Positions 3,784 to 40,733 of a stretch of DNA of 64,000 nt are shown here, piece after piece (position 1 is the first letter of the stretch; each line of letters opens with the position of its first letter). The stretch lies in IMG/VR virus record IMGVR_UViG_3300045996_002451, positions 147,172-211,171 of that record. The stretch is one strand, 5' to 3'. The translations under genes and the position numbers were made by a program. The notes under the pieces are model-generated. The model was not told the DNA's origin, searched no databases, and saw nothing but the letters and a program-made list of their open reading frames with translations. This DNA is from a virus (lineage: Duplodnaviria > Heunggongvirae > Uroviricota > Caudoviricetes).

Positions 3784-4974
3784 GTGTTGTTAAAGTTTGA
3801 TCAGCCTTACCGGGACCTGCGCGTCCTGGGTCTCATTGCCGACATGGCTGCCTGCGGTTACTACCGCATGGAGTATCCGTTTGAGTTCTTACGCCGGGGT
3901 GGGGCCAAGGCCGACACCACCGGTGCCGTCAATCTCCCCCTGCTGCAGGAGTACGACATCATTGTGGTCCAGCGCAGCTACAGCCCGGAACTGTTCGGGA
4001 TGCTGCAAGAGGCCCGGCGCTTCGGTAAGACCGTCCTGTACGAGGTAGACGATTACCTGCACGGCGTGCACCCGCACAGTCCGGCCTACAAGACGTTCCG
4101 ACCCAACGGGATAAACGTGCACTGGGTCGATCAATGGCTGAAGGGATCAGCAGGTCTCCTGACCAGCACTCCGGAGCTGGCGGGCGCCTACGGGCCGCTG
4201 GTGCCGCGTACGTGGGTGCTGCCGAACAACCTCGACTTCGGGATCCGCAACTGGGATCGACCGGCCAGTCGAGATCCGCGGCTGGAAGGCAAGCTGGTGA
4301 TCGGGTGGGCCGGATCCTCGTTTCACCCGGACGACATGTTGCCGCTTCAAGGAAGCCTGAAGAAGGTTCTGGAAAAGTATGGATCGCGGGTGGTGTTTGC
4401 CATCGCCTCCGGTCCGGCGCAGGTACGGCAGTTCCTGCAGCCGCTGAACCTTCCGTCCGAGCAGGTTGTCATCCTGGACCCCGTCCACTTCTGGGACTAC
4501 CCCCAACTCCTTTCCCAGTTTGATATCGGACTTGCCCCGCTTTCCAATACACTCTTCAACCGGTGCAAGTCCGAGCTGAAGCTGCTGGAATACGGCGCTT
4601 GGGGTATCCCGTATGTAGCCTCCAAGGTTGCGCCGTATAACCGCTTCCATCTGGCTAGCGGCGGACACGGAGGTTACCTGGCGACCAACACCCAGGAATG
4701 GGAAGCCGCGCTGGGTGCCCTCGTAGAGGATCCCAACAACTGGGGTGACCGGCACCTGTTCATCAAGGACTACGTCCGGGATCAGCACGACCTGGCGAAA
4801 GCCGCCTACCTGTGGGCAGGTTCGCTGCGTCAAGCGCGCGATCTGGCGCAGTACCAACCCGAGTTACGGTTGACCCCTGCAACGGCGGGTGCGCGCACCC
4901 CCGGCAGGAATGATCGCTGTCCCTGCGAAAGTGGGAACAAGTACAAGAAATGTTGTAGTCCAGCTTACGGATAG
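3784..4974 (+). CDS. GT-B-fold glycosyltransferase (GT4-like) with a C-terminal SEC-C zinc-binding motif.
   Basis: 'ELKLLEYGAWGIPYVAS' is an E-x7-E-type GT4 motif. The C-terminus 'CPCESGNKYKKCC' matches the SecA C-terminal metal-binding (SEC-C) motif. GTG start. Confidence 0.65.
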   Translation: MLLKFDQPYRDLRVLGLIADMAACGYYRMEYPFEFLRRGGAKADTTGAVNLPLLQEYDIIVVQRSYSPELFGMLQEARRFGKTVLYEVDDYLHGVHPHSPAYKTFRPNGINVHWVDQWLKGSAGLLTSTPELAGAYGPLVPRTWVLPNNLDFGIRNWDRPASRDPRLEGKLVIGWAGSSFHPDDMLPLQGSLKKVLEKYGSRVVFAIASGPAQVRQFLQPLNLPSEQVVILDPVHFWDYPQLLSQFDIGLAPLSNTLFNRCKSELKLLEYGAWGIPYVASKVAPYNRFHLASGGHGGYLATNTQEWEAALGALVEDPNNWGDRHLFIKDYVRDQHDLAKAAYLWAGSLRQARDLAQYQPELRLTPATAGARTPGRNDRCPCESGNKYKKCCSPAYG

Positions 4975-4982
4975 GAGTTGTC

Positions 4983-5543
4983 ATGAACCGCAGAAAGTTT
5001 TTTACCGGCCTGGGGTTAGCAGGTACTGGCTCACTCTTACCACCCATCGAGGAGCATCCCTCGGAACTGGTCCGGATCGACCAACCATACTTCGACCAGG
5101 ACGGTCGGGAACAGCTCCCGCTGTACTCTACCTGGAGACTGAGCGCGTTGGCTGTTGCCACCTTGGTCAAAGAAAACGGTCAGGTGGTCGGAAAACTGCA
5201 GGAGATCCAGATCAACTGTTACCGGAAAGTCGAACGCCTTAAGTTCAAAGGTGAAGTTGTTTACCGGTACGGTCCCCGGATCTATCAAGGTGTGTTGACG
5301 CCCTCCACGTTTTCTCCGTGGAGTTGGAACAGCACGCTGCAGCACGAAGTTCTCCACCTAGAAGTCAAAGCGTTGGCAACTAAAAAGTTAGAACGCCCAG
5401 ACTTCCAGATGCGCAATCTACGCATCGAAAGCTCAGATCTCATTAAGTACATGGTCTTTGAAGCTGAGGGTGTCGGTCTTAACTCGCTCAGCGCCTACTG
5501 GCAATACAACCAGTACGTGGACATCGACGGACCTCGTTTTTAA
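4983..5543 (+). CDS. Hypothetical protein with a twin-arginine (Tat)-like signal peptide.
   Basis: The N-terminus 'MNRRKFFTGLGLAGTGSLL' has the RRxFF Tat consensus followed by a hydrophobic h-region. Confidence 0.5.
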   Translation: MNRRKFFTGLGLAGTGSLLPPIEEHPSELVRIDQPYFDQDGREQLPLYSTWRLSALAVATLVKENGQVVGKLQEIQINCYRKVERLKFKGEVVYRYGPRIYQGVLTPSTFSPWSWNSTLQHEVLHLEVKALATKKLERPDFQMRNLRIESSDLIKYMVFEAEGVGLNSLSAYWQYNQYVDIDGPRF

Positions 5544-5548
5544 CTCAT

Positions 5549-5572
5549 GGGGTGTTACACGTGTAACACCCC
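5549..5572. promoter_or_regulatory. 24-bp perfect palindrome GGGGTGTTACACGTGTAACACCCC, the symmetric form of motif A.
   Basis: Intergenic, between the Tat-signal gene and baseplate J. Confidence 0.5.
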
Positions 5573-5584
5573 AACCTTACCACC

Positions 5585-6685
5585 ATGCTTATCCCTCCTA
5601 CCCAAGAAGAACTCTTCGCGCGTTTCCGCAGCGCCATGGAAGCCGTCGGTCTGACGCACTGGAGCCAGGGTAGCCGCATCGGTGCCATGGGTCGAGTGCA
5701 GGCCGCATACGTAGAAGAACTGTGGCAAAGTTTAGCCCAGACCGAAAGTAATCTGAACCCCTCTACCGCCCGCGGTCTGTACCTGGATCGTATGGGTAAC
5801 CAGTTCGGGGTCAAGCGGCTCGGCGCCTTAACGGCGGGCACGCTCGGCCAAGGACCTTCGGTGCAGTTCACCAACAACGGGGGAACACAGCTCACCGTAC
5901 CAGGAGGCACGCGTGTCTGGAGCACCCAGTCTCCGGAACTCGCCTTCTTCACCGTGCAAGATCTGACCTTGAGCGGGGGCGCACAGGGGTTCGTGGACGT
6001 GATGGCGGGAGCGGCAGGCGACCTGCACAACGTCGGTGCCAACACCCTGAACGCCCACAACGCCGGGATGAATCAGCTTACGGTCGTGAACGTGCGCCCG
6101 ATTGGTGGGGGCACCTTGCCGGAGAGCGACGCCAGCTACCGGTTCCGCATCAGCCAGGCGATGATGTCTCGCAGCGGTCAGACTTCGATCGCTTTGCAGC
6201 AGGCACTGCTCAAGTTGCCGGGCGTGCGGGAAGTCCTGATTCGTTCGGGAGCGCGGGGCAGCGGTACGCTGGACGTGATCCTGGTGCCGATCGACCGGGT
6301 GCCCTCCCAGGCTTTGTTGAGCGCGGCAGAGCAAGAAGTTGACCTGAACGTTGCCGCGGGGATCTCCTGGCGACTACTCACCCCGATCGTACGCCGCGTG
6401 GACCTCGACATCCAGCTTCAGATGAAGAGCGGGACAACCGTAGCCAGCGTCAAGGCGGCTGTAGACGGAGCGGCCCGTGCCTACATGGATAACCTCCGCG
6501 TAGATGACGGACTGGGCGGCAGCACCTTGATCTACAACGAGTTGATCTCCCGGATCATGGATGCGCACATCGATATCCTGGACGTCTCGGTTTCCCTCAG
6601 CCTGGACGGAGAGCGGACCTTGCAGACCAACATCCCCACCCGCGCGGGTGAGCGGTTGGTGTCCGGGTCTATCGGGATCAACTAA
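5585..6685 (+). CDS. Baseplate J-like protein (Mu gp47 / P2 gpJ family).
   Basis: 366 aa. Gene order is gp25-like ... J-like ... fibre genes. Composition is typical of Baseplate_J proteins. The call rests mainly on position and size. Confidence 0.5.
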   Translation: MLIPPTQEELFARFRSAMEAVGLTHWSQGSRIGAMGRVQAAYVEELWQSLAQTESNLNPSTARGLYLDRMGNQFGVKRLGALTAGTLGQGPSVQFTNNGGTQLTVPGGTRVWSTQSPELAFFTVQDLTLSGGAQGFVDVMAGAAGDLHNVGANTLNAHNAGMNQLTVVNVRPIGGGTLPESDASYRFRISQAMMSRSGQTSIALQQALLKLPGVREVLIRSGARGSGTLDVILVPIDRVPSQALLSAAEQEVDLNVAAGISWRLLTPIVRRVDLDIQLQMKSGTTVASVKAAVDGAARAYMDNLRVDDGLGGSTLIYNELISRIMDAHIDILDVSVSLSLDGERTLQTNIPTRAGERLVSGSIGIN

Positions 6686-7275
6686 TGCGTACGTTGTCGG
6701 AAGTGCTGGCAGATCCCGCGACCGTCACACGACTGGAAGCGGTCTGCCGAAAGCACCTCACCCATTTTCCAGAAGACCCCCGCAGTAGCTGTCTGTTCAT
6801 GTCCGCAGCCCTCCGGGAAAGCGGCACGAACGTCTCCCTCTTGTACCGGACCGACTACCTGGTTGCGGCTTTACGGCAGCAGGGTTGGGTGCAGATTCAT
6901 CCGGGTGAACTCGGAGACGTGTATGTACGTGGAGAGCAGGTAGGCCTGGTAGACCTGCAGACGGATCTGGAGGATCCTACGCTGCAGTGCTTCCGACTGC
7001 TCTCAGCACCTCTGCCGGAAAAGCCTTCCGGGGGTCCGGGCACCGAGTTGAAAAAGCGGTTGAGCCAGCTAGGTATTCACGTCACCCCTAACTGCTCGTG
7101 TAATCGTCGTGCTGCCTTGATGGATCAGAAAGGTCCGGACTGGTGTACGGAAAACCTGGACCTGATCGTGACGTGGTTGGGTGAAGAGGCGGCTCGCCGC
7201 CATCTCCTATTTGTTCCTTCTATCGCCAAGCTGTTGGTAAAACAGGCGATCCGCGCGAGTCGTCAGGCGCGTTAA
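6685..7275 (+). CDS. Hypothetical baseplate/tail protein, in the gpI-like position.
   Basis: ATGA overlap with the J-like gene. 196 aa. Immediately precedes the fibre genes. Confidence 0.4.
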   Translation: MRTLSEVLADPATVTRLEAVCRKHLTHFPEDPRSSCLFMSAALRESGTNVSLLYRTDYLVAALRQQGWVQIHPGELGDVYVRGEQVGLVDLQTDLEDPTLQCFRLLSAPLPEKPSGGPGTELKKRLSQLGIHVTPNCSCNRRAALMDQKGPDWCTENLDLIVTWLGEEAARRHLLFVPSIAKLLVKQAIRASRQAR

Positions 7276-7287
7276 CCAGCCCTTATT

Positions 7288-9870
7288 ATGGCAGTAACCT
7301 TTCTCGTTAGCCACGCCAGCACTCCTGCCTCCGGCGTCAGTGTGCGGCTTAGGGGCTCCGCTCCCGGCGTACCGGAAGAAGAATGGTATGACACTACCAT
7401 CGTCACCGGTGGGGACGGGTTAGCCGCGTTTTCCGGTGAGGAAGACTGGTCGTCCTGGCAAATGGACACCAGCAAGGCGTGCTACGCGCCTGCCACCTAC
7501 AACTACAACGCCGAGCAGTTGCACAACGTCGATCTGGTCAACGAGATCGGCTACCACGAAGTAGGGATCACCTGGGTGGGCGGCGGGGAGTGTGGCGAGG
7601 AGCCATGTGATCCGGGCGAGCAGCCGGGGCCGTGTTATGTGCTTTCCGAGGACGGGTGTAGCTGGGAACCTCCCGATACCGACTGCGCGGAAGGCGAAGA
7701 GTGGGACGAAGACGAGTGCGAGTGCGTTGCGATCGATCCGGATGAGTGTGCGCTCTCCTTAACGGTGCGCTCCCTGTCCACAGGTAACCCGGTCAGCGGG
7801 GCCCTGGTCACTTTCAGTGATGGTACCAGCGGCACTACCGACGCCAGTGGAGAGGTCACCTTCCCGGAGATGACCGCGGGCACGCTGACCTGGAACGTCA
7901 GCGGCACCAATTATTTACCGGTCTGGGACTCCGGCGAGTGCGGCGAGCACGAGACTTGGCTGCCGGATGATGACGAAACTGTCTCCGAGGTCTCCTACTG
8001 TTTCAGTGATCCCGACTGCGCAGGCTCTGCTGGACCCACGCCTACCGAGTGCTATCCCGCCATTACCAGCGTCCAGATCGTCGAGGATGCGGACGGTATT
8101 CCGCCGATCGATCAGAGTCATACCTACGACTCCACGCCCACGTTCGCCTGGACGGCAGACGGGGGTGTTGAGCCGTACCTGTATGTTTGGGAAGTCCGCA
8201 GCAGTGATGGCACTACCCTACTGGCCAGCGGTACGACGGTAGCCAATTTGGTGGAGCTGCCGGAACTAGACTACGACGAGTATCAGTTCCGCGTGCACGT
8301 CACCGACTCCGAAGGACACTGCTCACTCTGGACCGGGTTTGGTTTTGAGAGCACGGTGTTCGTCCCGGACGTGGTGATCGAGGAACCACCCGTCCTGGAA
8401 CCGGTGATCCCCCGCGCGCCGGAGCTGCTGCGCTACCTGCCCCGGTGGTACTCCGTCTACGGGGATGAAGAAAACCCCGGCACCGCAACCACGCTTTACC
8501 AATACTTCGAGCCTCAGCTCGTGGAGTGGGCCCGGTTTAACCGCAGCGTGGAGGAAGTGGCACAGAGCCTCTCCTTGTTGGAAGCGCCCGTAGCTCAACC
8601 CAGACTGGCCTGGACCCTGCACACCCGGATGGATGTGAACGCATCCTTCACGGTGAACGTCCGGCTGGACGGGGCGAGCGGTACGTTGAGCGGGGAGGTA
8701 CGTCGGGCAGAAAGCCTGTACGACTTCACCACGGCGTACGAACCGATCTATGTCCTGGACGAACAGGGCCGGATGGTGTTTCGCAACCTCTGCAGCCGCA
8801 TGCGTAGCATCACGCCGGACGGGGAAGACGTCTACCACTTGACCGGAGAAACCTCCGGGTTGGTGCGAGATGCGGACCTGACGGTGCTGAAAGACGGACT
8901 CTGGTACATCCTACCGGTAGACGGGGGCAGTGTGAACGTCTACACTGGCTCCTTGATGCTGCCTGCTACCTATAGTGGCGCCGCCACGATCCGCTACCTC
9001 TCCCGACGGTACCAAGAGACGGTTGAGGTCTCGGTAGCCGGAGAGCCATGGCAGACGCCGTATACCCTGGACCTATGGAACCGCTTTGACGAGCTGGGAC
9101 TGTTGATCGGGATCACGCGCCGCGCAGGGGAGGACAACGGACATTACCGGGAACGGTTGTATGCCCGCTGTCTGTCCAAGATCGGCACGGCGCAGGACTC
9201 CCTGGAGCAGCATGTCGCCGAGGATCTCTCCTTGGTTACGGTGCTGGAATGGGACGGCATCAGCACCTTGAATCTCGCAGCCTCCGGTCACTGGGGGATC
9301 CAGGACATCTACATCCAGGACGTACCAGAACTGGGACACGCGGTGGAAGAGGAGTTGCTTCCTACCGGTACCGCGGGACTCTACAGCTCCCATAAGCGTA
9401 CGTGGCTGGAAGGTTATTACCTGCATGTGGATGGCCGCACCGCTACCACCCTCACGTATCCGGACCTGTCCGTCTCCGGAAACCTGGTGGACTTTGGGAC
9501 CGCGGTCCCTGGTCGGGTTTGGGCAAACTACCGTTACCGGAACTACACCTTGACCCGCAGCAGTCAGGACACCATCACCACGGTGACTCCGGTGTCCGGG
9601 AATCTACTTCCCGGAAGCTATCAGGTACTCCTGGTACGCGGGGTTGTCGCCCACACGCTGGACGAGCGTAACTTCATCAACACCGAGTTGTTGGACGGGG
9701 CAGGAAGACCTAATGGTTACTTCCGTCAACTCCGCGAAACCCTCCTGCAGGGCTCACCGGTGCACGTAGGACGTTCCGGTTGGAACGGCTCCTACTGGTT
9801 GGATCGGGAGGACGACCGACCCCAAGTCTCCTACTTACCGCTGGTCTTTGATCAGACGGGGGAGGAGTAA
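7288..9870 (+). CDS. Tail fibre protein 1, with a Cys/acidic-rich N-terminal region.
   Basis: 860 aa. The Cys-rich 'CGEEPCDPGEQPGPC...' segment is in the N-terminal part. The C-terminal ~450 aa are paralogous to the next gene (for example 'LDLWNRFDELGLLIGITRRAGEDNGHYRERLYA' and 'GRSGWNGSYWLDRE'). Confidence 0.55.
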   Translation: MAVTFLVSHASTPASGVSVRLRGSAPGVPEEEWYDTTIVTGGDGLAAFSGEEDWSSWQMDTSKACYAPATYNYNAEQLHNVDLVNEIGYHEVGITWVGGGECGEEPCDPGEQPGPCYVLSEDGCSWEPPDTDCAEGEEWDEDECECVAIDPDECALSLTVRSLSTGNPVSGALVTFSDGTSGTTDASGEVTFPEMTAGTLTWNVSGTNYLPVWDSGECGEHETWLPDDDETVSEVSYCFSDPDCAGSAGPTPTECYPAITSVQIVEDADGIPPIDQSHTYDSTPTFAWTADGGVEPYLYVWEVRSSDGTTLLASGTTVANLVELPELDYDEYQFRVHVTDSEGHCSLWTGFGFESTVFVPDVVIEEPPVLEPVIPRAPELLRYLPRWYSVYGDEENPGTATTLYQYFEPQLVEWARFNRSVEEVAQSLSLLEAPVAQPRLAWTLHTRMDVNASFTVNVRLDGASGTLSGEVRRAESLYDFTTAYEPIYVLDEQGRMVFRNLCSRMRSITPDGEDVYHLTGETSGLVRDADLTVLKDGLWYILPVDGGSVNVYTGSLMLPATYSGAATIRYLSRRYQETVEVSVAGEPWQTPYTLDLWNRFDELGLLIGITRRAGEDNGHYRERLYARCLSKIGTAQDSLEQHVAEDLSLVTVLEWDGISTLNLAASGHWGIQDIYIQDVPELGHAVEEELLPTGTAGLYSSHKRTWLEGYYLHVDGRTATTLTYPDLSVSGNLVDFGTAVPGRVWANYRYRNYTLTRSSQDTITTVTPVSGNLLPGSYQVLLVRGVVAHTLDERNFINTELLDGAGRPNGYFRQLRETLLQGSPVHVGRSGWNGSYWLDREDDRPQVSYLPLVFDQTGEE

Positions 9871-9875
9871 CGCTC

Positions 9876-11363
9876 ATGCCTACACCTAACTCAGAACGCG
9901 CTATCTATCGGCCTCAACCCTCCGGGGGCGAGCGTTACTTGCCCGGTTGGCACATTGCTCGCACGGATCCGGACAGCCTGGTTTACCGCCTGGTACACCA
10001 ACTGGTCGATGAGTGTGTCCCGCTCCGAGAAGAGCAGGCGCGCGCGTATCAGATGAACTGGTTGACCACCGCGCCCGTGGATGAGCCGCGAACGCAGTGG
10101 ACGTGCGTCTATCCGTTTGACCCGCAAGATGAACTGACCGTGACGGTGACGACCGCCGCCGATCTCGAGATCGAGGTGCGTGCCGCGCTGAGCGATCACG
10201 ACTTTGTGCGGGCGACCGATCCGGTCTGGAAGCTGGACACCCCGCAAGGGCGCCTGGTTTTTCGTAACCTGGCCACGGTGGAAAAGGAGCTGACCTCCGT
10301 CACCACCAGCTACACCGTAACCGGAGAAGCTTCGGGACTGGTCGCTGACGCTAATCTATACTGGCAGGGACAGACGGATGATCCCTGGCAAGTCCTATCG
10401 GCAGACAGTTCCTTGCGGGACGGGGTGACCTTTACCTTGCCGGTCACCGGCGTCATCTCGGTGCGTTACCAGTCCCAGGCACGCTACGCTGACCTGGTCT
10501 CGGGCACGGTGCTCTTAGAGCGTCGCAGCAGCCGCACGGTGCCGTTGCCGCTTACCGTGGAGCCGCTCCTGAACCTCTTCGATGGCTGGGGGTCGATCCT
10601 CGGGATCCCCCGCCTGCCGGATGAGGACAACGTCGCGTACAAAGCACGGCTGCTCGCGGAAGCGGAAGCGCCGCCTAACTCCACGGAGACAGGGGTGATT
10701 CGGGGCATCGCCTCGCGTCTGGGGTTGCTTTCGCGCACCTACTGGAACGGGATCGACGAACTCGAGTTCTCTGAAGAGGAGGTCACCGCGGTCCACCTGG
10801 TCGGTGTGGACATGTTCTTCGGGGTCACCGAGCAGCTTACGCCGGAGCCGCGGGAAAGCGTCACCGAACCGGTAGACACCTACTACGCGTCCTACACGGA
10901 CTGGCGGGAAGGGTGGTACGTCTATGTCGACGGCGTGCCCGCACAGGGCGTGACCGTTTCGGGTAACGTCGTTACACTAGGGGAAGAGACCAGTGGGGTG
11001 GTGACCGCGGCCTACACCGTCGCGCGGTACCAGTTGGAGCGCGACGCGGAAGATTACATCCTCAGCGTGCAGCCAGGTCAAGGCCTGCCGCCCGGTAACT
11101 ACGTGGTCCTTTACTCCCGCCAGGTCCTGGTCCATGGGCTGGGTGCGGAGACCGTGCAGGATGCGCTGCTCCTGACCGCAGCCGGGCTGCCGAATGAACT
11201 CTTCCTAGAGCTGCACCGTACCCTGGCGAGTGGGAGTACCACGTCGCTGGGAAGGGCGGGTTGGGAAACTGCGTATTGGTTTGCTTCCCCGGAAGAGACG
11301 CCGGGGACTACTCAGGTGGCGTTGCCGTTTGACGCGCACCTGACATTGGGTGATGATGAGTAA
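9876..11363 (+). CDS. Tail fibre protein 2, a paralogue of fibre 1.
   Basis: It shares blocks with fibre 1: 'LNLFDGWGSILGIPRLPDEDNVAYKARLLA', 'REGWYVYVDGVP...VSGNVVTLG' and 'GRAGWETAYWFASPEE'. Confidence 0.5.
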   Translation: MPTPNSERAIYRPQPSGGERYLPGWHIARTDPDSLVYRLVHQLVDECVPLREEQARAYQMNWLTTAPVDEPRTQWTCVYPFDPQDELTVTVTTAADLEIEVRAALSDHDFVRATDPVWKLDTPQGRLVFRNLATVEKELTSVTTSYTVTGEASGLVADANLYWQGQTDDPWQVLSADSSLRDGVTFTLPVTGVISVRYQSQARYADLVSGTVLLERRSSRTVPLPLTVEPLLNLFDGWGSILGIPRLPDEDNVAYKARLLAEAEAPPNSTETGVIRGIASRLGLLSRTYWNGIDELEFSEEEVTAVHLVGVDMFFGVTEQLTPEPRESVTEPVDTYYASYTDWREGWYVYVDGVPAQGVTVSGNVVTLGEETSGVVTAAYTVARYQLERDAEDYILSVQPGQGLPPGNYVVLYSRQVLVHGLGAETVQDALLLTAAGLPNELFLELHRTLASGSTTSLGRAGWETAYWFASPEETPGTTQVALPFDAHLTLGDDE

Positions 11364-14100
11364 CTACGCTTACAACTATAGCTACGGAACTCCCGTACTG
11401 GGTTCGCCTTCCCTAACCGGACCGGTCGCACCTGTGATGGAGCTGCAGGACGGAGAAGACCGCCTGCAGCTTTTTACGTTGCAGGGGGCGGAAAACTTTC
11501 TGCGCGCTTACGCCCAGCTTTCGGTACTGGAACAGGAAAGAAGGGTGACCTATTGGGTGCCACCCGAGCCCCGACCGACCACCCAAGCGTTAGGCGCCTA
11601 CCTCGGTGCGGACGTGCGTTACACGGGTAACGACTACACGCCGTGGATCCTGTCTCGCCCGCCCGATCCGGTATTGACCAAGGCAACTCGCTACGAAAGC
11701 TTCTACCTCCAGAACCACCTGGCGGTAGATGGGCACACCCAGCACTGGTATCCGGAGTATCCAGTACGCGACCTGCAGGAGCAGTTGCTTCGCGGGGTCA
11801 AGGGAACCCGCCCCAACGTACCCCTCCTGTATCTGGGCGGGGCCTTACCTGGAGGCACCGACGTGCCGCTGCATACCAACTGGTACCAGTATGCGGGGCA
11901 CTCCATGTATTGGAAGCTGCGTCCGGTGGTCGACCATCTTTCCGAAGCGACCGGTAGATTACTACGACAGATCGATCTCCAGCCCTGGAATGAGATGGAG
12001 CTGGAACCGCTCCTGTTTGACCCACTGGGTGAGTGGCAGATCCCGGAACTGATGGAGTGCTTGGCCTCGACCTCCACCGTTATCGGTCGACCGGGCCTGA
12101 CCACTCTCCTGGCTAGCATCCTCGGCAAACCGCTGCACCTTTACACGCCGGACAAGCTACGTATCGATTGGAACTTAGGTCCCCGGAAAGCGACGCAGTG
12201 GACGATTCCCTGGTCGAGTCTCGCTAAGTCGGACATTGACTTCTCATTCTACAACAACGTCTGGGGCGAGTTCCCGAAGCTGGTGGAGCCGAAGAACCGT
12301 CCCCTGCGCGTGGGCATCCTGACCCCGGCCATGCTGATTGGCGGCGTAGAGCAGTGGATCCTCTCCCTGGTCCAACACACAGATAGGCAGCGTCTCTCCT
12401 GGGAAGGCGTCGCCGTTCTTTATCCAGAAAACCTGGACACCCGGATGTCGGACCGCATCGAGCCGTACTGCCCGGTGGGTGTAGGCCTTGGTGAGGTTGC
12501 CCGGCTGTCCCGAAGTTGCGATGTCCTCCTGGCCTGGGGACTTCCGGAATGGTGGAACTTCCTACCTCCGGACCGTAAATGCCAGGTGGTCTACGTGAAC
12601 CACGGCGTGGGTGACTGGTCCACGGCTTCCTGTAAAGGCGCAAGCCATGCGAACGGCCTGGTAGCGGTCTCGACCGCATCCAAGGACTGCTTCCCGGTCA
12701 GCCACCGGTCCCGCGTCCAGGTGATCCCCAACGGAACCGACCGCAAGCGGCTGGAAACCAGCCAGACCAAGGAGTCGCAGAAGTGGGCCTGGGGGATCGC
12801 TCCGGATAAGAAGGTCCTGGGGTTCCTGGGACGCTTTGCGTATGAGAAGAACCCGGACCTCCTGGTCAGCGCTGTGGCCGCGCTGCCGGAAGACTGGGTC
12901 GGGGTGATGGTCGGCAGCGGCAGCCCGGAAGCCGAGTCCGGACTCAAGAGTCTGGCGGAGGCGTGCTGCCCGGGACGCATCTTCTTCCCCGGACCTACTG
13001 AGGACGTGGGCGGGGCGCTTACCGGGTTCGACGTCCTGCTCGTGCCTTCCCATGAAGAAGGCTTCTGTTACGTGGTGATCGAAGCCTGGTTGAACGGCAC
13101 GCCGGTGGTGGCGACTCCCACGGGGGTGGCTGCAGAAGAGGTCGGGCTGGTGGCGTACATTCAAGCCGACGCACTCGGTTATGAAGTAGCGGAAATCGTA
13201 GAGCAGACTTACTACGATAGCTGGCTGCCTGTCCTGCTGAAGGAAGGGGTGAGCACGGCTACTGAGAAATACAGTCAGACGGCGTTTGGTGCAAACTGGA
13301 CGAACTATCTTTGCAGCTTCCCAAAAATCGAGCGCCCGCAGGAGCAACTCTGGGATGTGCGTCAGTTGCCGTTGGAGTTGATTCCGGGTGTCCAGGTAGT
13401 CCTGGCCGCACACAACGCCGGTCCCTGGCTGCAGCGCTGCCTGGACTCCATCGAGGTCGCGATGGAAGGGCTGCACTGGGGACTCTTCCTGGCGGATGAC
13501 GCGAGCACCGACGACACCCTGGCGATCGCCAAGGCGCACCGCACCAGTGCGGACTACGTGCGCATCCAAAGCTTTGCTAAAGCCCGCACCACGGGGGAAG
13601 CCAAGAACCGCGCCCTCGCGCTGGGTGCCGACCTGCGGGAAACCCTTCCGGCAATCGTGCACATGGATGCCGATGACGTGATGATGCCAGGCCGCGTGCG
13701 CTTCTTGCTGGCGCAGGCAGTGCGCACCGGGAAGCCGTTGGTGCACGGCACGGTGCGTTTCCGTTCCGTACCGCCCCAAGGCGTGGCCCAGTTACTGGAA
13801 GTAGCCGGGGGTAACCGGGAACAGTACGAGGCAGCGAACTTAACGCCGTGTATTACCCTGCACCACGCGTGCCTGATCCCCGAAGACCACAAGCTCTTTT
13901 GTGAAGACCTGCGCGCCATCGAGGACGGCGAACTGTGGACCAGGCTCCGCCTCTCCGGCATCCAGAGTGTTCCTTGTCCGGGACCACTCTCCCATGATTA
14001 CTACCCGCACTGGAACAGCACGGCGTATAACCCGGAAACGGAAATAAACATCGAGCGCTACTATCGTCGACGCGCACTACTAAAGCAAGAGACCCTTTAG
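11350..14100 (+). CDS. Tri-domain glycosyltransferase: GT9-like, then GT4, then GT2.
   Basis: The N-terminal region 'VIGRPGLTTLLASILGKPLHLY' resembles the heptosyltransferase (GT9) C-half. The middle 'EGFCYVVIEAWLNGTPVVAT' is a GT4 E-x7-E motif. The C-terminal 'LADDASTDDT' and 'HMDADDVMMP' are GT2 DxD motifs. The start overlaps the fibre 2 stop within 'ATGATGATGAGTAA'. Confidence 0.7.
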   Translation: MMMSNYAYNYSYGTPVLGSPSLTGPVAPVMELQDGEDRLQLFTLQGAENFLRAYAQLSVLEQERRVTYWVPPEPRPTTQALGAYLGADVRYTGNDYTPWILSRPPDPVLTKATRYESFYLQNHLAVDGHTQHWYPEYPVRDLQEQLLRGVKGTRPNVPLLYLGGALPGGTDVPLHTNWYQYAGHSMYWKLRPVVDHLSEATGRLLRQIDLQPWNEMELEPLLFDPLGEWQIPELMECLASTSTVIGRPGLTTLLASILGKPLHLYTPDKLRIDWNLGPRKATQWTIPWSSLAKSDIDFSFYNNVWGEFPKLVEPKNRPLRVGILTPAMLIGGVEQWILSLVQHTDRQRLSWEGVAVLYPENLDTRMSDRIEPYCPVGVGLGEVARLSRSCDVLLAWGLPEWWNFLPPDRKCQVVYVNHGVGDWSTASCKGASHANGLVAVSTASKDCFPVSHRSRVQVIPNGTDRKRLETSQTKESQKWAWGIAPDKKVLGFLGRFAYEKNPDLLVSAVAALPEDWVGVMVGSGSPEAESGLKSLAEACCPGRIFFPGPTEDVGGALTGFDVLLVPSHEEGFCYVVIEAWLNGTPVVATPTGVAAEEVGLVAYIQADALGYEVAEIVEQTYYDSWLPVLLKEGVSTATEKYSQTAFGANWTNYLCSFPKIERPQEQLWDVRQLPLELIPGVQVVLAAHNAGPWLQRCLDSIEVAMEGLHWGLFLADDASTDDTLAIAKAHRTSADYVRIQSFAKARTTGEAKNRALALGADLRETLPAIVHMDADDVMMPGRVRFLLAQAVRTGKPLVHGTVRFRSVPPQGVAQLLEVAGGNREQYEAANLTPCITLHHACLIPEDHKLFCEDLRAIEDGELWTRLRLSGIQSVPCPGPLSHDYYPHWNSTAYNPETEINIERYYRRRALLKQETL

Positions 14101-14114: not shown

Positions 14115-14714
14115 ATGGAGTTCAGTATTCTAGTAGTTACGCACAACCACGCGCACTACCTGCAGCGCGCCTTGCGCTCGGTAGCCGCAGTGGCCAAGGA
14201 CAGTGCGTACGAGATCTTGGTGTGTGACGACGGCAGCACCGACCAGACGGCCAAGCTGGTCAAGCAACTGCGCGGTGCGCTGCCGCTGCGTTACTACGCA
14301 GACGATAAAGCTCCGACCATTGGGTTTGCTCGCAACCGCGCGCTCAAGCGGGCACGAGGTACGCACCTGATGTTCCTGGATGCGGACGACATGTTGCTAC
14401 CTGGTCACCTGACTGGGCTGCGCTCCGGAAAAAACCCGGTTACCTACGGAGAGGCAGAGGGACCCCCCTCGCACTTTCCGAAGTTGGGTACCTTGCTTTT
14501 TCGCCGGGAACTGTTTACCAAATCCGGACTGCGTTTTGATCCGCGGTTGAAATGTGGTGAGGACTGGGATCTCTGGCTGCGCCTGCAAGAGCGGCAGATC
14601 GCGACGCACCATGTGCCTCAACTGGTCTACCAGCATTTCGACGCCCCGGAAGCGTTGTCGCAGCAGTACGATCGTGCTGCGTGGGAAGCGTATGTTTCCG
14701 CCCGGCGTCCCTAG
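14115..14714 (+). CDS. GT2-family (GT-A fold) glycosyltransferase.
   Basis: 'ILVVTHNHAHYLQRALRSV', 'ILVCDDGSTDQT' and 'FLDADDMLLPGHL' are canonical GT2 motifs. Confidence 0.7.
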   Translation: MEFSILVVTHNHAHYLQRALRSVAAVAKDSAYEILVCDDGSTDQTAKLVKQLRGALPLRYYADDKAPTIGFARNRALKRARGTHLMFLDADDMLLPGHLTGLRSGKNPVTYGEAEGPPSHFPKLGTLLFRRELFTKSGLRFDPRLKCGEDWDLWLRLQERQIATHHVPQLVYQHFDAPEALSQQYDRAAWEAYVSARRP

Positions 14715-14750: not shown

Positions 14751-16454
14751 ATGTTATTGTCACCCCTCGTTGGTATCGCCAGTTTTCAGTCGGGCGTAGG
14801 TGATCAGGACGACCTCAAAGTCCAGCTCCGTGAGGATCTGAACGGGGGTTGGTTTGTCCGGTTGCGGGAAGGCTTCTACTACATCGGGCACAATGAGAGC
14901 TATCTCTTTGCGCAGAAGGCGTATGCCGAGGACACGCCCGCCTCGACGACTGCGATTGAAACCATCACGGTTACCGGGTTCACCGAGGACCCGACCGAAC
15001 TGGGACCGATCCTCCTCCGCACCAGTACCGGCAAGTCGCTGACGCGCGTCAGCTCCCCTTTCCGCGCCTACCAAAACCTTACCTTCACTGTCTCCGGAGA
15101 CGTGGCGACTGCGCCGGTCTCCGGTTTTGTGGTTTCTGTGGTGTCCGACCCGGCCAGTGGGATCTACTTGCAGGTTCCCAGCCTGGCGGACATCCTCTCG
15201 GTCGAGGACTACGTCTTTGATCCGGTAGCCAACACCGTCAAGGTCAAGGACACCGATCCTCCCGAGCTGTTCGCAACCTGGCTGCGCCACGAAGTAACCG
15301 GCGACCAACTACTCCAGCATGAGATCGTACGCGTAGACCGGGATGGGTTTGTGCGGACCCAGTTGACCGCGGTCTCCATGGCAAGCGGCCTGGTGCCGAC
15401 GATTCGCAAACCCACGCCTACAGGCGCCATCGAGGTCGAGCCTACGGCAGCCTCGGGTAACGTCCTGACCTTACCGACGAACTCCGGCATCAGCTCCGGT
15501 GACCTGGTGGCTGTCGAGTACTACGCGCAAGGCACCTACAGTGCGGTCTACAGTGCCGGAACGTTGACGGTCAAGTACCTGGCGAAAGAGGCGGTCGAAC
15601 ATTATCTGGAGTGGGAAACCAAGAGCACCGGCTACTACGACACCAGCGAACTGCCGGAAAGTCACAACGACTACGTACAGTTGAACCCGCTGCTGGAGCG
15701 TCAAGAGCCGTGCTTCCTTTACCTGTGCGCCACCGATCTGGCCAAACCGGTCGGCACCCGCGTAACCGTTACCCTGGCGGAGCAGAACCCGGTCTGGAGC
15801 GCGGAGCGCCCGGAACCATGTCTGGTCCGCGTGCTGGTGGAGGACCCGGAGGGAACCCGGATCCCGAAGACCGCGGTGACCTTAACGGCTACCCTGGCAG
15901 GTAACCCGCTGGTCTCCCTGGTCGCGCACACGGACTGGCATGGGAAGGCCCTGTTCCAGGTCACGCCCAACGCCTCCGGCGCCCTGGTGCTGACCGCTAC
16001 CGCAGGCGCCGTTTCCGGTACGACCACCATTACCGTGCACGACCGGGCCGCGACCCAGGACAGCGACGAACTGCAGCTCGGCAAGCTGCTCCTGCATCTG
16101 GAGAAAACGCCGTACCGCGACAACCTGTACCGCGTCAGTGCCTACTACTGCCACCTGGACGGCCCCCCTTTCCAGCCCCACAGCACCGTCAGTTCTTCGG
16201 AACCCTGGCGAGGCTCAGTGCGTTTCACCACCCGTCAATCCACCCTCTACACCTTGCAAGGTAATAAGCTCGGCCCCTCAGGCGAAGCCCTGCTAGACGT
16301 GGATGCGGTAGCTACCCTCTTGATCCAGCCGAGTGCCGGAGATGTGTTGCGGGCCGAAATCTACAGCCCGGATGGCACGCGCCGTCGGGTAGCTCGTCCC
16401 CTCCGACTGGTGAGTGTGGACACGAACAGTGCTCCGACTTTGGAAGACGCGTAA
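14751..16454 (+). CDS. Tail fibre / structural protein with a probable bacterial Ig-like domain.
   Basis: 'VTLTATLAGNPLVSLVAHTDWHGKALFQVTPNASGALVLTATAGAVSGTTTITV' is Big-domain-like. Located within the fibre module. Confidence 0.45.
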   Translation: MLLSPLVGIASFQSGVGDQDDLKVQLREDLNGGWFVRLREGFYYIGHNESYLFAQKAYAEDTPASTTAIETITVTGFTEDPTELGPILLRTSTGKSLTRVSSPFRAYQNLTFTVSGDVATAPVSGFVVSVVSDPASGIYLQVPSLADILSVEDYVFDPVANTVKVKDTDPPELFATWLRHEVTGDQLLQHEIVRVDRDGFVRTQLTAVSMASGLVPTIRKPTPTGAIEVEPTAASGNVLTLPTNSGISSGDLVAVEYYAQGTYSAVYSAGTLTVKYLAKEAVEHYLEWETKSTGYYDTSELPESHNDYVQLNPLLERQEPCFLYLCATDLAKPVGTRVTVTLAEQNPVWSAERPEPCLVRVLVEDPEGTRIPKTAVTLTATLAGNPLVSLVAHTDWHGKALFQVTPNASGALVLTATAGAVSGTTTITVHDRAATQDSDELQLGKLLLHLEKTPYRDNLYRVSAYYCHLDGPPFQPHSTVSSSEPWRGSVRFTTRQSTLYTLQGNKLGPSGEALLDVDAVATLLIQPSAGDVLRAEIYSPDGTRRRVARPLRLVSVDTNSAPTLEDA

Positions 16455-16457
16455 CTC

Positions 16458-18425
16458 ATGGCCATCAGCACACCTGTAAATCTGGGCCAAGACTCAGTAA
16501 CCACCACCGCTACCACGACCCCGCTGGTCGTAACCGTGGCAGCCGCTGCCGGTTCCGCCGTGATCGTCACGCTGTACTGCCGGGACCTGTTCCAGGCAGC
16601 TAGCGGCATGACGGTGGCGGACAGCGCCGGGAATACGTACACGCTGGTCCAGTGGAACGGGAACCTGTCCACTTACGGACGGATGGTGGTGTTCGCGAAC
16701 TACGACCTGGACTTCGATCTGGATGTCAGCGACACCATCACGGTTACCCATACCTCCACCAGTTCGCGGCGGCTGATTGGCGCAGTCGGGGTGACTGGCA
16801 TCAACTCCGTTAACCTGTACCGCGGTGCGCATGGTTACTGGCAGTCGGCGGACTCCGGCTACACTGCCGAGGAGACGCAGGGCGAAGAGCTGATCCTCAG
16901 CTACGTCGGGTTCCATGACAACGGCAACGTGCCACCCTTGTTTGTAGAGGGGGATGGCTTGAGCCCGCTGGCGGGAGAGCGCACCACCCTGGAAGCGCTG
17001 AACACCAGCTACAAAATTGTGAACACGCCCACCCGGGCCCGCGCGTACGGCTGGTTCACCACGAACTGGGAGAACCGCGGTTTCTACGCGGCCTACAACG
17101 CGTTTGTCCTTTCCTTCAAACAGGACACCGAACCGTTCTATGTGACGGTGCAGGACGGGGGTAGCCTGGCGGAAAGCGTGGCGACCCTGGGAGGTAACCG
17201 CTCGTTCACTGTCACGGACAGTGGGAGCTTGACGGAAGCGATGGGCGGCGGTACCAGCACCGCTCCGCCCGACGGCGCGCCGTTTGCGTTTACCGCTACG
17301 GATCAGGGCAGCCTGGGTGAGCGGATCTCCATCGGTTACGGCAACGTCACCCATGAACTGCGACTGGGTTCCCGGGTGCCGGAAGGCGGCGTCAACCTTG
17401 CCTGGCTGCAGATCCCGATCCTCTTCCCGCATGAGAACCTGTCGATCATCGACACCGCCAGTTTTGTCGCGGAAAACGAGGACCTGGTCTGGAAAGAGAA
17501 CGTCCCTACGGAGAGCGGCTTCCTCGATTCCGAGAACGGCTGGCTGTACCGCACGATCTACAACGAGTCGCTTCCCGGGGTCAGCGGGACAATCGGTGAG
17601 GGGCTGGCCAACTACGAACTGACGCGTGCTCCGGACGTCGGCACCACCCCCGCACAGTGGCACTTGCAGCACTTCACCAGTGAGATCCGGGTGCACCATC
17701 CGCGCAGCGGCGAACAGGGTATCGGCTGGTATCCCCGCGTCCAGGATGGACTGGTGATCCGGCGTCACATCCTACAGGCGAACGATACCAGTTGGCTTTC
17801 GGAGGTCTTCACGCCAGGCGACGAGCTGGTGCTCTACTACACCGTCTACGAGGCGCAGGATCTGCCGTACGACTCGGACGATCGCACTCTCCAGGTAACC
17901 CATCTGGTGACGGACCTGGACGGGAAAAACCTGCAGCTCCCGGATGGACTGCTGACTGAAGTCTCGAGCATCCGGGTCAACGATCAGGAACTGCTCAGCG
18001 CGACCCTCGATGCCAGCAGCACCCTGCCGGACAGTGTGGTAACTGGTTGGGATCCCGAGCAGGGCACCGTGAAGCTGGCCCGGACGCTGGACCCCGCGGA
18101 CCGGGTGTATGTGACGTACAAGCACCAGGCCGAGTTGTATACTTTCCGGGGCTTCTACGACGACACGGACGCGGTGTACCGAGACCTCGACCTGAACCCC
18201 GAGCCGGGGCACACGTACGATGGGGGCAGCCCTACGAGCGAGCTGCTGGACCGACCGGTCTTTATCTACCTGTTGCCGACCGCGGCTTACCGCCGCAGCG
18301 TCAAGAACGCCGACGGTTCTCGCACCTACGAAACCGAGCGTGTGTTCTACAGCGGCACGCGGTTCACGAAAAGCTTCTTGCGCTGGCAGTTGGGCAGTCG
18401 CACCAACGAAGCGGGCGATGTCTAG
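16458..18425 (+). CDS. Structural protein, fibre or spike associated.
   Basis: 655 aa. ATGG overlap with the upstream gene. Thr/Ser/Gly-rich beta-type composition. Confidence 0.4.
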   Translation: MAISTPVNLGQDSVTTTATTTPLVVTVAAAAGSAVIVTLYCRDLFQAASGMTVADSAGNTYTLVQWNGNLSTYGRMVVFANYDLDFDLDVSDTITVTHTSTSSRRLIGAVGVTGINSVNLYRGAHGYWQSADSGYTAEETQGEELILSYVGFHDNGNVPPLFVEGDGLSPLAGERTTLEALNTSYKIVNTPTRARAYGWFTTNWENRGFYAAYNAFVLSFKQDTEPFYVTVQDGGSLAESVATLGGNRSFTVTDSGSLTEAMGGGTSTAPPDGAPFAFTATDQGSLGERISIGYGNVTHELRLGSRVPEGGVNLAWLQIPILFPHENLSIIDTASFVAENEDLVWKENVPTESGFLDSENGWLYRTIYNESLPGVSGTIGEGLANYELTRAPDVGTTPAQWHLQHFTSEIRVHHPRSGEQGIGWYPRVQDGLVIRRHILQANDTSWLSEVFTPGDELVLYYTVYEAQDLPYDSDDRTLQVTHLVTDLDGKNLQLPDGLLTEVSSIRVNDQELLSATLDASSTLPDSVVTGWDPEQGTVKLARTLDPADRVYVTYKHQAELYTFRGFYDDTDAVYRDLDLNPEPGHTYDGGSPTSELLDRPVFIYLLPTAAYRRSVKNADGSRTYETERVFYSGTRFTKSFLRWQLGSRTNEAGDV

Positions 18426-18434
18426 GGTTGCACC

Positions 18435-20126
18435 ATGTCTACCTACTATGTAAGCCCTCAGGGCAGTAACACCAACAACGGCTCCACCAACGCGCCGTTC
18501 AAGACCCTCGCGAAAGCGGAGACGGTGGTCGTGAGCGGCGACACGGTGGTCCTGCGTGCAGGTAACCACACGGGTGGCGTCCTGTTCTCCGGGATCGATA
18601 ACTTGACCCTGGAAGCAGAAGGGGTAGCGGTACTAAACGCGGCAGGTGCAGGGTATGCGCTCAAGGTAATCGAGTGTGAGAACCTGGCAATCTCGGGGAT
18701 CCACTGCAAGAACGCCACCAACCATGGGTTGTTCCTGGTGGATGTGTCGGGCGGCGTCATCGAAGAGTGCCACTTCTACGACAACGACAGCAACGGTCTT
18801 TTGACCGCGAACTCCTCCGACCTGATCATCCGTAATAACCAGGCGTACCGGAACGGCAGCCACGGCATCTACTGCTCCCAGTCCGGAGACAACCTGGAGA
18901 TCTACGAAAACGAGTTGTGGGAGAACGACAGCTCGCAGCTTCAGGTCAACGCCAACCAAAGCGGCAAAGACTCGGGCAATCCCTATGAAGATGGGATCAG
19001 TGAGAACTGCGAGATCTACCGCAACAAGATCTGGAATGGTGGGAAGAACGGCGGCGCTGCCATCAACTTGATGGGCGTACATACCAGCACAATCCACAAC
19101 AACCTGATCTACGGACAGGTGAGCGGCGGGGGCATCGCCCTCTCCGACGACGGTGCCGGTGCGGGTTTCGGTTGTGAAGACAATACGATCTACCACAACA
19201 CCATCGTCTTTAAGCGGGATGTGGGACGGTTCGGCATCCAGGTCGTGGAAGACTCCACCGGCAATACCCTGAAGGCCAACATCATCGTGCGGCCTGGTAC
19301 GGCTTACGACTGTTTGGACACGGACGCCAGCACCCTCGCCACGCTTACCAGCGACTACAACATTTTCTACGGGGACACCAACGGGGTAGTAGACGGCCTG
19401 ACCCTTGCGGCCTGGGTCACCGCCAGTGGGGAGGACACCAACTCCCAGTTCCTGGACCCGGGGCTGACCTCCGACTTCCAACTGCTCGCGGACTCTCCGT
19501 GCCGGGAAGCCGCCCCCTCAGGTCTGGTCACCGTAGACTACGCCGGGGTGACGCGCCCGCAGGGTACCTTGCCGGACATCGGCTGCTACGAAGCCGTGGC
19601 GCTGACCGAGGATGAAGAGGAAGAGATCGCGGACAACGGCACGGGCGAAGCGGAAAGCGGGGACTGCTCCAAGCGCAGCACCTTCGGCCACGTCACCTTC
19701 GCGCGGGCCTACTTCGTAAATAGTTTGCCGCAAGACGACAGCCTTCCTGAAGACGACACCGTTGGCGGCGGTCTGGCAACCCTCCCGTCGGCGCTCCTGC
19801 TGGCCAAGATCCATGTGACGCCGAACTCTCACCTCCAGAATCTGAAGCTGGTGGATACGCGCGTACGCGGAGGCGGGATCCCGGTGTCGGTCAATACTGC
19901 CGACGTCAACCTGCCGGGGAACACCCGGCGCCAGGCGGAGACCTACTGGGACATCGGTGGATGGGACGGCGTGCCGGTTCCACTGGCCGGTTCGGTCCTG
20001 GTCGATCTGCCGGAGGGCGTACGCAATGGCAGCAGCCAGTACGCGCAGTTCACCGAGGAAGAGATCCTCGAGATTGCTCAGCGACACGTAGCCGCAGGGG
20101 TACGGGTCCTCGTGAGGTACCGTTGA
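18435..20126 (+). CDS. Tailspike with a right-handed parallel beta-helix (pectate-lyase-like), a putative polysaccharide depolymerase.
   Basis: Repeated PbH1-like turns: 'GIHCKNATNHGLFLVDVSGGVIEECHFYDNDSNGLL', 'NQAYRNGSHGIYCSQSGDNLEIYENELWEND', 'IYRNKIWNGG' and 'IHNNLIYG'. Confidence 0.7.
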   Translation: MSTYYVSPQGSNTNNGSTNAPFKTLAKAETVVVSGDTVVLRAGNHTGGVLFSGIDNLTLEAEGVAVLNAAGAGYALKVIECENLAISGIHCKNATNHGLFLVDVSGGVIEECHFYDNDSNGLLTANSSDLIIRNNQAYRNGSHGIYCSQSGDNLEIYENELWENDSSQLQVNANQSGKDSGNPYEDGISENCEIYRNKIWNGGKNGGAAINLMGVHTSTIHNNLIYGQVSGGGIALSDDGAGAGFGCEDNTIYHNTIVFKRDVGRFGIQVVEDSTGNTLKANIIVRPGTAYDCLDTDASTLATLTSDYNIFYGDTNGVVDGLTLAAWVTASGEDTNSQFLDPGLTSDFQLLADSPCREAAPSGLVTVDYAGVTRPQGTLPDIGCYEAVALTEDEEEEIADNGTGEAESGDCSKRSTFGHVTFARAYFVNSLPQDDSLPEDDTVGGGLATLPSALLLAKIHVTPNSHLQNLKLVDTRVRGGGIPVSVNTADVNLPGNTRRQAETYWDIGGWDGVPVPLAGSVLVDLPEGVRNGSSQYAQFTEEEILEIAQRHVAAGVRVLVRYR

Positions 20127-40495: not shown

Positions 40496-40733
40496 AACCC
40501 CTAGCACAAGACGTCCGGATCGATTACACCAACTGGCGCAACGAACGCTCCAGTCGGATCATCTCTCCGATCGAGTTGTTCTTCGGCTCCAACCTCTACC
40601 ATCCAGAAGCTCAGTGGCTTCTCGTGGCCCTGGATGTAGAGAAGAACGCCACACGCACCTTTGCGTTGAAGAACATCCATCATTGGCAGCCCGCTCGCTC
40701 AACCCACATGCTCTCGGAGCAGAAAGAAACCCC

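Follow-up and report, generated by a model that had tools for sequence, protein, structure and literature searches.

A fused GT9-like/GT4/GT2 glycosyltransferase among baseplate and fibre-type genes of a large uncultivated phage: a putative virion-glycosylation cassette

The locus and its reading frame

The DNA analyzed here (64,000 nucleotides of IMG/VR record IMGVR_UViG_3300045996_002451, positions 147,172 to 211,171; this whole stretch is hereafter called the window) belongs to a large uncultivated myovirus-type phage represented by a 211-kb contig. Tightly packed among its structural genes, and on the same strand, lies an open reading frame (ORF) of 916 codons, whose product joins three modules of glycosyltransferase (GT) type: a divergent GT9-like module of GT-B fold, a GT4 module of GT-B fold, and a GT2 module of GT-A fold (Table 1). 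An earlier note, made from the sequence alone, had described the protein as three transferase folds in one chain; three GT-type modules are present, but the first has lost the GD motif of its family and is probably degenerate. The reading favored here, to which we assign a probability of roughly 45%, is that the gene is part of a late-expressed cassette, which builds a glycan on virion proteins (likely fibre-like ones) by means of a soluble, cytoplasmic multi-module GT.

Table 1. Features of the 916-residue protein, its gene and the surrounding structural block (positions are those of the window).
Feature	Position	Strand	Evidence or remark
ORF of 916 aa, GT9-like, GT4 and GT2 modules fused	11350..14100	+	Single open frame, domain searches
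Candidate starts GTG 11350, ATG 11353, ATG 11356	11350..11363	+	Overlap the last codons and TAA of the upstream gene
N-terminal module, divergent GT9-like GT-B fold, probably degenerate, residues ~35-295	11452..12234	+	
LQGAENFL, residues 44-51, site of the family-invariant P-x-G-x-G-D (window G-A-E-N)	11479..11502	+	Family alignment
VIGRPGLTTLLASILGKPLHLY, nucleotide-sugar-binding-lobe motif, residues 244-265	12079..12144	+	Aligns with WaaC VSVDTGLSHLTAALDRPNITVY (hhalign)
GT4 module, residues ~318-656	12301..13317	+	PF00534, PF13692, phrog_2170, alignments to relatives
EX7E motif, E570 to E578	13057..13083	+	E570-GFCYVVI-E578; spacing kept in P0002
GT2 (GT-A) module, residues ~679-916	13384..14097	+	PF00535, E 2e-13
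LADDASTDDT, nucleotide-binding DD-x-S-x-D motif, residues 714-723	13489..13518	+	GT2 module
DADD, DxD metal- and donor-binding motif, residues 773-776	13666..13677	+	GT2 module
GT-B glycosyltransferase with SEC-C	3784-4974	+	phrog_7162, E 4e-42; PF13692 and PF02810; 51% identity to L002 1862-3031
Baseplate_J	5585-6685	+	
First virion structural (fibre-like) gene	7288-9870	+	phrog_21059; adds N-terminal CarboxypepD_reg and PKD-like domains
Upstream virion structural (fibre-like) gene	9876..11363	+	phrog_21059; paralog of the C-terminal part of 7288-9870
Standalone GT2, 199 aa, last cassette gene	14115..14714	+	PF00535, E 2e-20; 26% identity to L002 13870-14592
Big_1 protein	14751-16454	+	
655-aa protein	16458-18425	+	
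Right-handed beta-helix protein (tailspike or depolymerase-like)	18435-20126	+	

The ORF is borne out as one uninterrupted frame, and the two remaining forward frames carry 35 and 29 stop codons across the same interval; the sequencing frameshift that had been named beforehand as an outcome speaking against a single gene is not supported. All four motifs quoted for the protein were located (residues 244-265, 570-589, 714-723 and 771-780), and the highest 19-residue Kyte-Doolittle mean of the chain, 1.53, stays below the level of a membrane helix. A 405-aa ORF on the opposite strand (12562-13779) was rejected as a gene, since it lies opposite strong domain matches in sequence of 62% GC. Several more long antisense ORFs occur in the window and are most likely by-products of its GC content of 60-62%.

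The proposed overlap with the upstream gene was confirmed: that gene ends GGT GAT GAT GAG TAA, and three candidate start codons, in frame with the long ORF, lie within this stretch. The true start is nevertheless uncertain. In the gene call of the JGI (P0001, the only database copy of the protein) translation begins at Met30 (nt 11437), and the G+C content at third codon positions (GC3) is 0.59 in the first 29 codons, a very small sample, versus 0.75 in the gene body. No Shine-Dalgarno-like sequence was found at the candidate starts in 11350-11363, nor at most other genes of the region. An overlapping start is favored by the intergenic gaps among the neighboring genes, which measure 3-36 nt, and by the homologous junction in a related phage contig (L002), where the upstream TAA is immediately followed by ATG.

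Since the modules are separate genes in every relative examined for gene context, and since the protein is carried by one contig only, with no second copy found, the fusion might be suspected to be an assembly or sequencing artefact that joined two or three adjacent genes in frame. This is the least probable of all explanations considered here: it would take two independent frame-preserving errors, each also deleting a stop codon; the linkers (residues 296-317 and 657-678) are coding-like, with GC3 values of 0.86 and 0.73; the independent gene call gave the same long protein; and a second fusion involving this GT4 subfamily exists (P0002, see below).

The GT4 and GT2 modules

Both C-terminal modules, which the earlier note had recognized as a GT4 E-x7-E core and a GT2 domain of GT-A type, score above the Pfam gathering thresholds with their motifs intact, and the hidden Markov models (HMMs) thus confirm two genuine GT domains rather than only one. 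Glycos_transf_1 (PF00534) covers residues 474-598 (E 8.9e-20, 71.4 bits versus a cut-off of 26.4) and is accompanied by PF13692 (E 1.6e-18) and, in PHROGs, by phrog_2170; the N-terminal lobe of the GT4 module gives a sub-threshold match to PF13439 (E 0.019). Residues 309-656 align over their full length with P0002 (32% identity), residues 318-657 do so with the GT4 of contig L036, and identity to the standalone phage GT4s of L036-L038 is 28-31%. The EX7E motif lies within EGFCYVVIEAWLNGTPVVAT (residues 570-589). Glycos_transf_2 (PF00535) covers residues 683-809 of the last module (51.1 bits versus a cut-off of 23.3), where DDASTDD occupies residues 716-722 and HMDADDVMMP residues 771-780. The adjacent 199-aa GT2 is 27% identical to this module and has DDASTDD, DADD and ED-x-x-LW-x-RL in common with it. 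NCBIfam and PHROGs agree with Pfam on both assignments, and no specific equivalog reaches its threshold. Judged by these signature motifs, the GT4 module is of the retaining (EX7E) and the GT2 module of the inverting (DxD) type; because the motifs are intact, each module is likely to transfer a single sugar residue from a nucleotide-sugar donor.

The N-terminal module belongs to a phage family resembling GT9

The N-terminal module escapes most sequence searches. Residues 1-320 have no match in Pfam, NCBIfam, PHROGs or PDB sequences; for residues 1-329, no Pfam family including PF01075 matched even at E values up to 10; phmmer and profile searches of PDB sequences with the module or its family returned nothing meaningful; and a word-indexed search with the first 320 aa among 5.8 billion proteins gave no match and missed the protein itself. 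When 1.84 billion representative proteins were searched exhaustively with phmmer, the protein and three weak relatives (E 1.2e-5 to 9.5e-4) were retrieved, and a profile search added three more. These relatives comprise about 280-370 aa, are 37-56% identical among themselves and, where their context was readable, came from phage-like contigs only. They are characterized by an opening motif, L-H-x-L-x-P-A-G-[IV]-G-D-x-x-W-x-x-S-K, and by a late motif, G-x-A-x-G-x-x-I-L-x-x-Y-L-G-x-P-T, which aligns with VIGRPGLTTLLASILGKP in the window. The sole member with a trace of PF01075 is P0006, and this trace is faint (E 0.073, 12.8 bits versus a cut-off of 22). In P0006 (L033 5036-6442) the GT9-like module is fused to a P-loop kinase domain of zeta-toxin/AAA_33 type. 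Zeta toxins phosphorylate UDP-sugars, and the two domains of P0006 may form a sugar-modifying pair.

The structure prediction and Foldseek comparison that had been suggested as a check were run on this module and point to a GT-B fold closest to GT9 structures. From the single sequence, AlphaFold gave no usable model of residues 1-329 (predicted local distance difference test score, pLDDT, 30), and a model built on a five-sequence alignment reached a pLDDT of 52 and a predicted template-modelling score of 0.59, with a beta-alpha-beta pattern. In the PDB, the top Foldseek match was 3tov (E 1.6e-3), with other GT-B enzymes coming next; against viral models, a phage "glycosyl transferase, family 9" came first (E 1.7e-4), with RfaF-like and Aah/TibC-like phage proteins at lower ranks. 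Despite the low model confidence, three independent fold searches all agree that GT9 heptosyltransferases are nearest. In profile-profile comparison by hhalign, the family including the window copy matched an alignment of E. coli WaaC, WaaF, WaaU and WaaQ with 53% probability (E 1.4e-4) and, when the window copy was omitted, with 87% probability (E 3.6e-6), versus 0.1% for a GT4 alignment as negative control; the profiles are shallow, at 4-7 sequences. Because the fold searches and the profile comparison place the family nearest GT9, the module is regarded as a divergent GT9-like GT-B domain, which resembles GT9 in predicted fold and, more tentatively, in profile and is not a member by curated HMM. 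The description "heptosyltransferase-like" in the earlier note thus holds as a fold resemblance, but not as GT9 membership.

Is the N-terminal module still a transferase?

Within its family, the window copy is the most divergent member, with 17-24% identity to the others. When a column is counted as conserved if six or all seven of the other members keep it, the window copy retains 25 of 66 and has lost 41. The losses include the opening motif, in which P-x-G-x-G-D-x-x-W-x-x-x-K has become L-Q-G-A-E-N-F-L-R-...-Q by substitutions at P44 (to L), G48 (to E), D49 (to N), W52 (to R) and K56 (to Q); G46-A-E-N49 stands opposite the G-[IV]-G-D of the family, so that the invariant GD is replaced by EN. 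This motif is otherwise invariant in all seven members, and even a distant paralog in contig L034 (L34b), which is 24-29% identical to other members, retains P-A-G-I-G-D-F-S-W-x-x-S-K.

The GD of the family falls on G12-D13 of WaaC in both the extended and the global hhalign alignment. Asp13 is the strictly conserved catalytic base of heptosyltransferase I (WaaC), and its equivalent in TibC, Asp110, is likewise the catalytic base and required for activity (PMC4358343). At the positions of two further WaaC residues, D261 and H266, the window has R and T, and equivalents of both are absent from the whole phage family. Because the GD and most of the conserved columns are lost and equivalents of D261 and H266 are absent, the N-terminal module is, as judged from the alignments, probably inactive or chemically altered, with Glu48 leaving some doubt. 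The safer reading of the protein is accordingly one of two active transferases and one probably degenerate module. Its descent is best described, on sequence comparison, as that from a phage-specific GT9-like gene, which was fused here to two other transferases and lost the invariant GD.

An alternative is that all three modules are active on the same target, where the GT9-like module would start the glycan with Glu48 or another base and the GT4 and GT2 modules would extend it, yielding a trisaccharide. The module keeps 25 conserved residues together with the GT-B pattern and the G-x-x-G...G-K-P motif of the nucleotide lobe, a carboxylate (E48) adjoins the lost Asp, both frame and GC3 (0.72) hold up across the module, and viral precedents with three active domains exist (A111/114R and A064R, see below). 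However, a motif that is invariant in seven other members, including the paralog at 24-29% identity, is gone, as are 41 of the 66 columns; the WaaC residues D261 and H266 are unmatched; and no other member of the family has diverged nearly as much. We therefore consider activity of all three modules unlikely.

Genomic setting

Over its first 30 kb, the window is a tightly packed block of plus-strand genes, in which a GT-B/SEC-C gene, Baseplate_J, two paralogous virion structural genes, the 916-aa protein, the 199-aa GT2, the Big_1 protein, the 655-aa protein, the beta-helix protein and further large structural proteins follow one another. The GT-B/SEC-C gene, with its zinc-binding SEC-C motif at the C-terminus, lies closely 5' of Baseplate_J; its homolog in L002 occupies the same place and adjoins a sheath-initiator-like gene. 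The two virion structural genes are paralogous over their last ~490 residues, and the second one, directly upstream of the 916-aa ORF, is 38% identical to L002 8567-10000 and weakly matches, over a short length, a protein of Moorella phage MTATph1 annotated as "virion structural protein". Because the search support stops at "virion structural protein" (phrog_21059), the identity of this gene as a fibre gene is positional; the earlier designation as a tail-fibre gene stands with respect to the virion, and its fibre part follows from position only.

Neither a flippase, polymerase or other membrane component nor a transmembrane segment was seen in the domain and hydrophobicity scans, and promoter-like or terminator-like sites were no more frequent than in shuffled sequence.

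Several other features of the window lie outside the cassette. The C-terminal part of both the 655-aa and the beta-helix protein is matched by L002 16330-17877 (44% and 45% identity), which suggests, at the level of sequence, duplication or shuffling of a C-terminal module. At the left end of the window, the N-terminal ~70 residues of the product of 15-1502 (+) match an internal segment of the very long "endolysin" phrog_20474 (E 1.7e-20), and this product is possibly a tail-associated lysin, or else a piece of some larger virion protein. Farther to the right, genes for a dCTP deaminase-like protein, a dCMP deaminase, a CTP synthase and a ThyX-domain protein of unusual length, 524 aa (34911-35531 and 40407-41303, +; 52858-54510 and 57809-59383, −) may reflect altered pyrimidine pools or DNA base modification. 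Two adjacent genes of the SPFH/Band 7 family (50860-51717 and 51717-52640, −) were found in this phage context.

Related loci

A search for the same fusion in other phage or host genomes, as had been suggested, found it nowhere else: the three-module arrangement was absent from 5.8 billion proteins, IMG/VR, metagenome contigs and a genome collection. JGI and ENA metagenome contigs yielded only generic GT2 matches through the DxD-region pattern, the genome collection only partial GT4 matches in metagenome-assembled genomes of Methylacidiphilales and Chloroflexi, and the INPHARED phage collection, queried at the DNA level (distant matches) with the region and at the protein level, nothing except the short MTATph1 match of the upstream gene. 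In relatives the modules are standalone, and P0002 represents another fusion of the GT4 type.

A related arrangement is that around the family member P0007, which is found in L002-L004, from other metagenomes (a search of IMG/VR with P0007 found none). In these contigs the gene order is that of the window, i.e., GT-B/SEC-C, Baseplate_J, fibre 1, fibre 2, slot genes and the Big_1 protein, and the flanking structural genes of L002 are 37-57% identical to those of the window. The slot of L002 holds five separate genes, encoding the GT9-like P0007, a 230-aa protein in whose sequence the GT2 motifs DNGSTDG and LDND were recognized by eye, a GT2 fused to a methyltransferase, a separate methyltransferase and a 240-aa GT2-like protein, the last being 26% identical to the 199-aa GT2 of the window. 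Comparison of the L002 and window slots indicates that the first and last genes are conserved and the middle is exchanged. In the related phages the GT9-like gene is separate and directly follows the second fibre-like gene.

In L034, P0004 follows a 1276-aa protein, and with it lie a GT2, a methyltransferase and one or more further family paralogs; the stretch 5091-9770 of this 10-kb phage contig thus holds two clear GT9-like paralogs, possibly a third, besides the GT2 and the methyltransferase. Relatives of the GT4 module are phage-borne too and adjoin large genes of structural type. The closest GT4 relative, P0002 (L001 5619-8468), follows proteins of 672 and 1038 aa and is itself a fusion, in which an unrelated 500-aa N-terminus of structural-protein character precedes the GT4 and a Cys-rich tail (CxxC...CxxCxC). 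Homology of this N-terminus to the fibre-like proteins of the window was rejected, as BLASTP gave no match. P0002 closes a block of large genes, after which helix-turn-helix, Prim-Pol and helicase genes follow. The GT4 relatives in L036-L038 are standalone genes for 374-453 aa; the one in L038 lies between two proteins with collagen-triple-helix repeats and beside a GT25, and this group (5152-11040 of a 192-kb viral contig) could be a fibre-glycosylation unit.

Proposed function and alternatives

In the reading favored here, the 916-aa protein would be a soluble cytoplasmic enzyme within a small glycan-building cassette of the baseplate/fibre-type block. The GT4 and GT2 modules would each add one sugar in turn, and the N-terminal module, dead or altered, would serve mainly in acceptor recognition or as a scaffold that holds the active modules on the substrate. 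This substrate would be a virion protein, most likely one of the neighboring fibre-like proteins, modified in the cytoplasm late in infection, and the structure of the glycan would be dictated by the variable genes in the middle of the cassette. Action by "one processive enzyme", as the earlier note had it, finds no support; multi-module transferases of this type act sequentially.

Several points weigh against this proposal. The acceptor is assigned from gene position and inferred timing, which are circumstantial, and the fibre identity of the neighboring genes is positional as well. No sugar-nucleotide synthesis genes were found among the scanned window ORFs of at least 150 aa. With respect to the N-terminal module, the structure model is of low confidence, the GD-to-GD correspondence sits in a low-confidence part of the hhalign alignment, Glu48 adjoins the lost Asp and could in principle substitute for it, and there is no clade of close relatives of the window module that would show "EN" to be conserved.

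The same genes might instead remodel a glycan of the host envelope (lipopolysaccharide (LPS) core or O-antigen, capsule, exopolysaccharide), with lipid-linked or surface glycans as acceptors, either to block superinfection or to prevent trapping of virions on debris. GT9, GT4 and GT2 are classic families of LPS-core and polysaccharide synthesis; the best, albeit sub-threshold, NCBIfam matches are polysaccharide and teichuronic-acid GTs; PHROGs files the matching families under "moron, auxiliary metabolic gene and host takeover" and relates the neighboring GT2 to GtrB-like O-antigen conversion families; and GT clusters of cyanophages are commonly read in the literature as modifying the host surface. 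However, the genes are embedded in a structural operon at conserved positions between genes of 37-57% identity, unlike typical moron insertions, and the scans showed neither a flippase nor a polymerase, nor any other membrane component or transmembrane segment. Moreover, relatives of the GT9-like module come from phage-like contigs only, where context is readable, and those of the GT4 module have fibre-type genes as neighbors. Host-envelope remodeling is thus rather unlikely, although slightly less so than activity of all three modules.

Glycosylation of the phage DNA at hypermodified bases, as a means of evading restriction, was considered as well. Hypermodification of DNA by phage GTs has precedents (Pyle 2024, as cited in PMC12619734), and the dCTP deaminase-like protein, dCMP deaminase, CTP synthase and long ThyX-like protein of the window could feed base modification. 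Nonetheless, the GT genes lie ~20 kb or more from these nucleotide-metabolism genes and inside the late structural block, the related cassettes contain small-molecule-type S-adenosylmethionine-dependent methyltransferases and several GT2s, as is typical of glycan building, and similarity to known DNA glucosyltransferases is absent from the Pfam, NCBIfam, PHROGs and INPHARED results. DNA as the acceptor is therefore very improbable.

Comparison with known systems

Multi-domain GTs encoded by viruses have precedents. A064R of chlorovirus PBCV-1 has the layout GT-GT-methyltransferase, to which the GT2-methyltransferase fusion in the L002 cassette may be compared. Like A111/114R of the same virus, the three-domain A064R builds glycans of the capsid protein (PMC7826918). 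A111/114R resembles the window protein as a viral chain of ~900 aa with three modules of ~300 aa (~35-295, 318-656 and 679-916 in the window), and each of its modules is proposed to add one residue of the virion glycan in the cytoplasm, independently of host machinery (PMC7826918). However, chloroviruses infect eukaryotic algae, type and order of the domains differ (here GT9-like GT-B, GT4 GT-B and GT2 GT-A), and the first module appears degenerate here; the likeness is one of functional class and not of homologous family. The statement in the earlier note that this is not a textbook architecture is thus correct for the GT9-like/GT4/GT2 combination, which is new, but not for three-domain viral GTs as such, which were already known.

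For the N-terminal module, the best structural matches are WaaC/WaaF and TibC/AAH, and the profile match spans the nucleotide-sugar-binding lobe. TibC is of particular relevance as a GT9-fold enzyme that glycosylates a fibrous beta-helical protein (PMC4358343). The window module differs from these enzymes in that it has no Pfam GT9 match, carries Asn at the position of the catalytic Asp and lacks equivalents of D261 and H266, and no heptose pathway genes lie nearby.

In bacteria, WbdA and WbbB combine several GT modules per chain, which act in turn on one growing glycan. The window protein shares the arrangement of several modules in one chain, but WbdA and WbbB are encoded by chromosomal bacterial genes and work at the membrane on undecaprenyl-linked O-antigen. 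The virions of mycobacteriophages are, in the account cited, glycosylated by phage-encoded GTs (Freeman 2023, as cited in PMC12619734), and the likeness lies in the modification of virion structural proteins by GTs of the phage itself. As described in that source, these are separate small GT genes of siphoviruses of Actinobacteria, and the C-termini of capsid and tail-tube proteins are modified, whereas the window carries a fusion inside the baseplate/fibre-type block of a large myovirus-type phage, and its target is a candidate.

What is already known, therefore, are multi-domain viral GTs, phage GT clusters and phage GT9-like proteins. New are the GT9-like/GT4/GT2 combination, a small uncurated phage family, and a conserved but variable glycosylation slot in the baseplate/fibre-type block of uncultivated large phages.

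Implications

A more far-reaching and speculative idea, which we consider doubtful, is that the N-terminal module is a pseudo-glycosyltransferase, i.e., a former initiating protein-GT turned into a docking domain for the fibre-like neighbor, which would bring two active transferases to the fibre-type proteins, where these would assemble a glycan specific to the strain; the slot that separates fibre 2 from the Big_1 protein would then be a hypervariable "fibre glycan" island of large environmental phages. The fusion is also a natural example of a transferase module possibly converted to a non-catalytic domain, within a GT9-like family for which no curated model exists and which seems restricted to phages. 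Demonstrations of virion glycosylation are confined to a few cultured phages. The conserved slot, with mixes of GTs and methyltransferases that differ between related uncultivated large phages, would point to sugar coats on fibre-type proteins being commoner and more diverse than has been recognized, and such coats could affect host recognition, protease resistance, and adsorption to non-host material.

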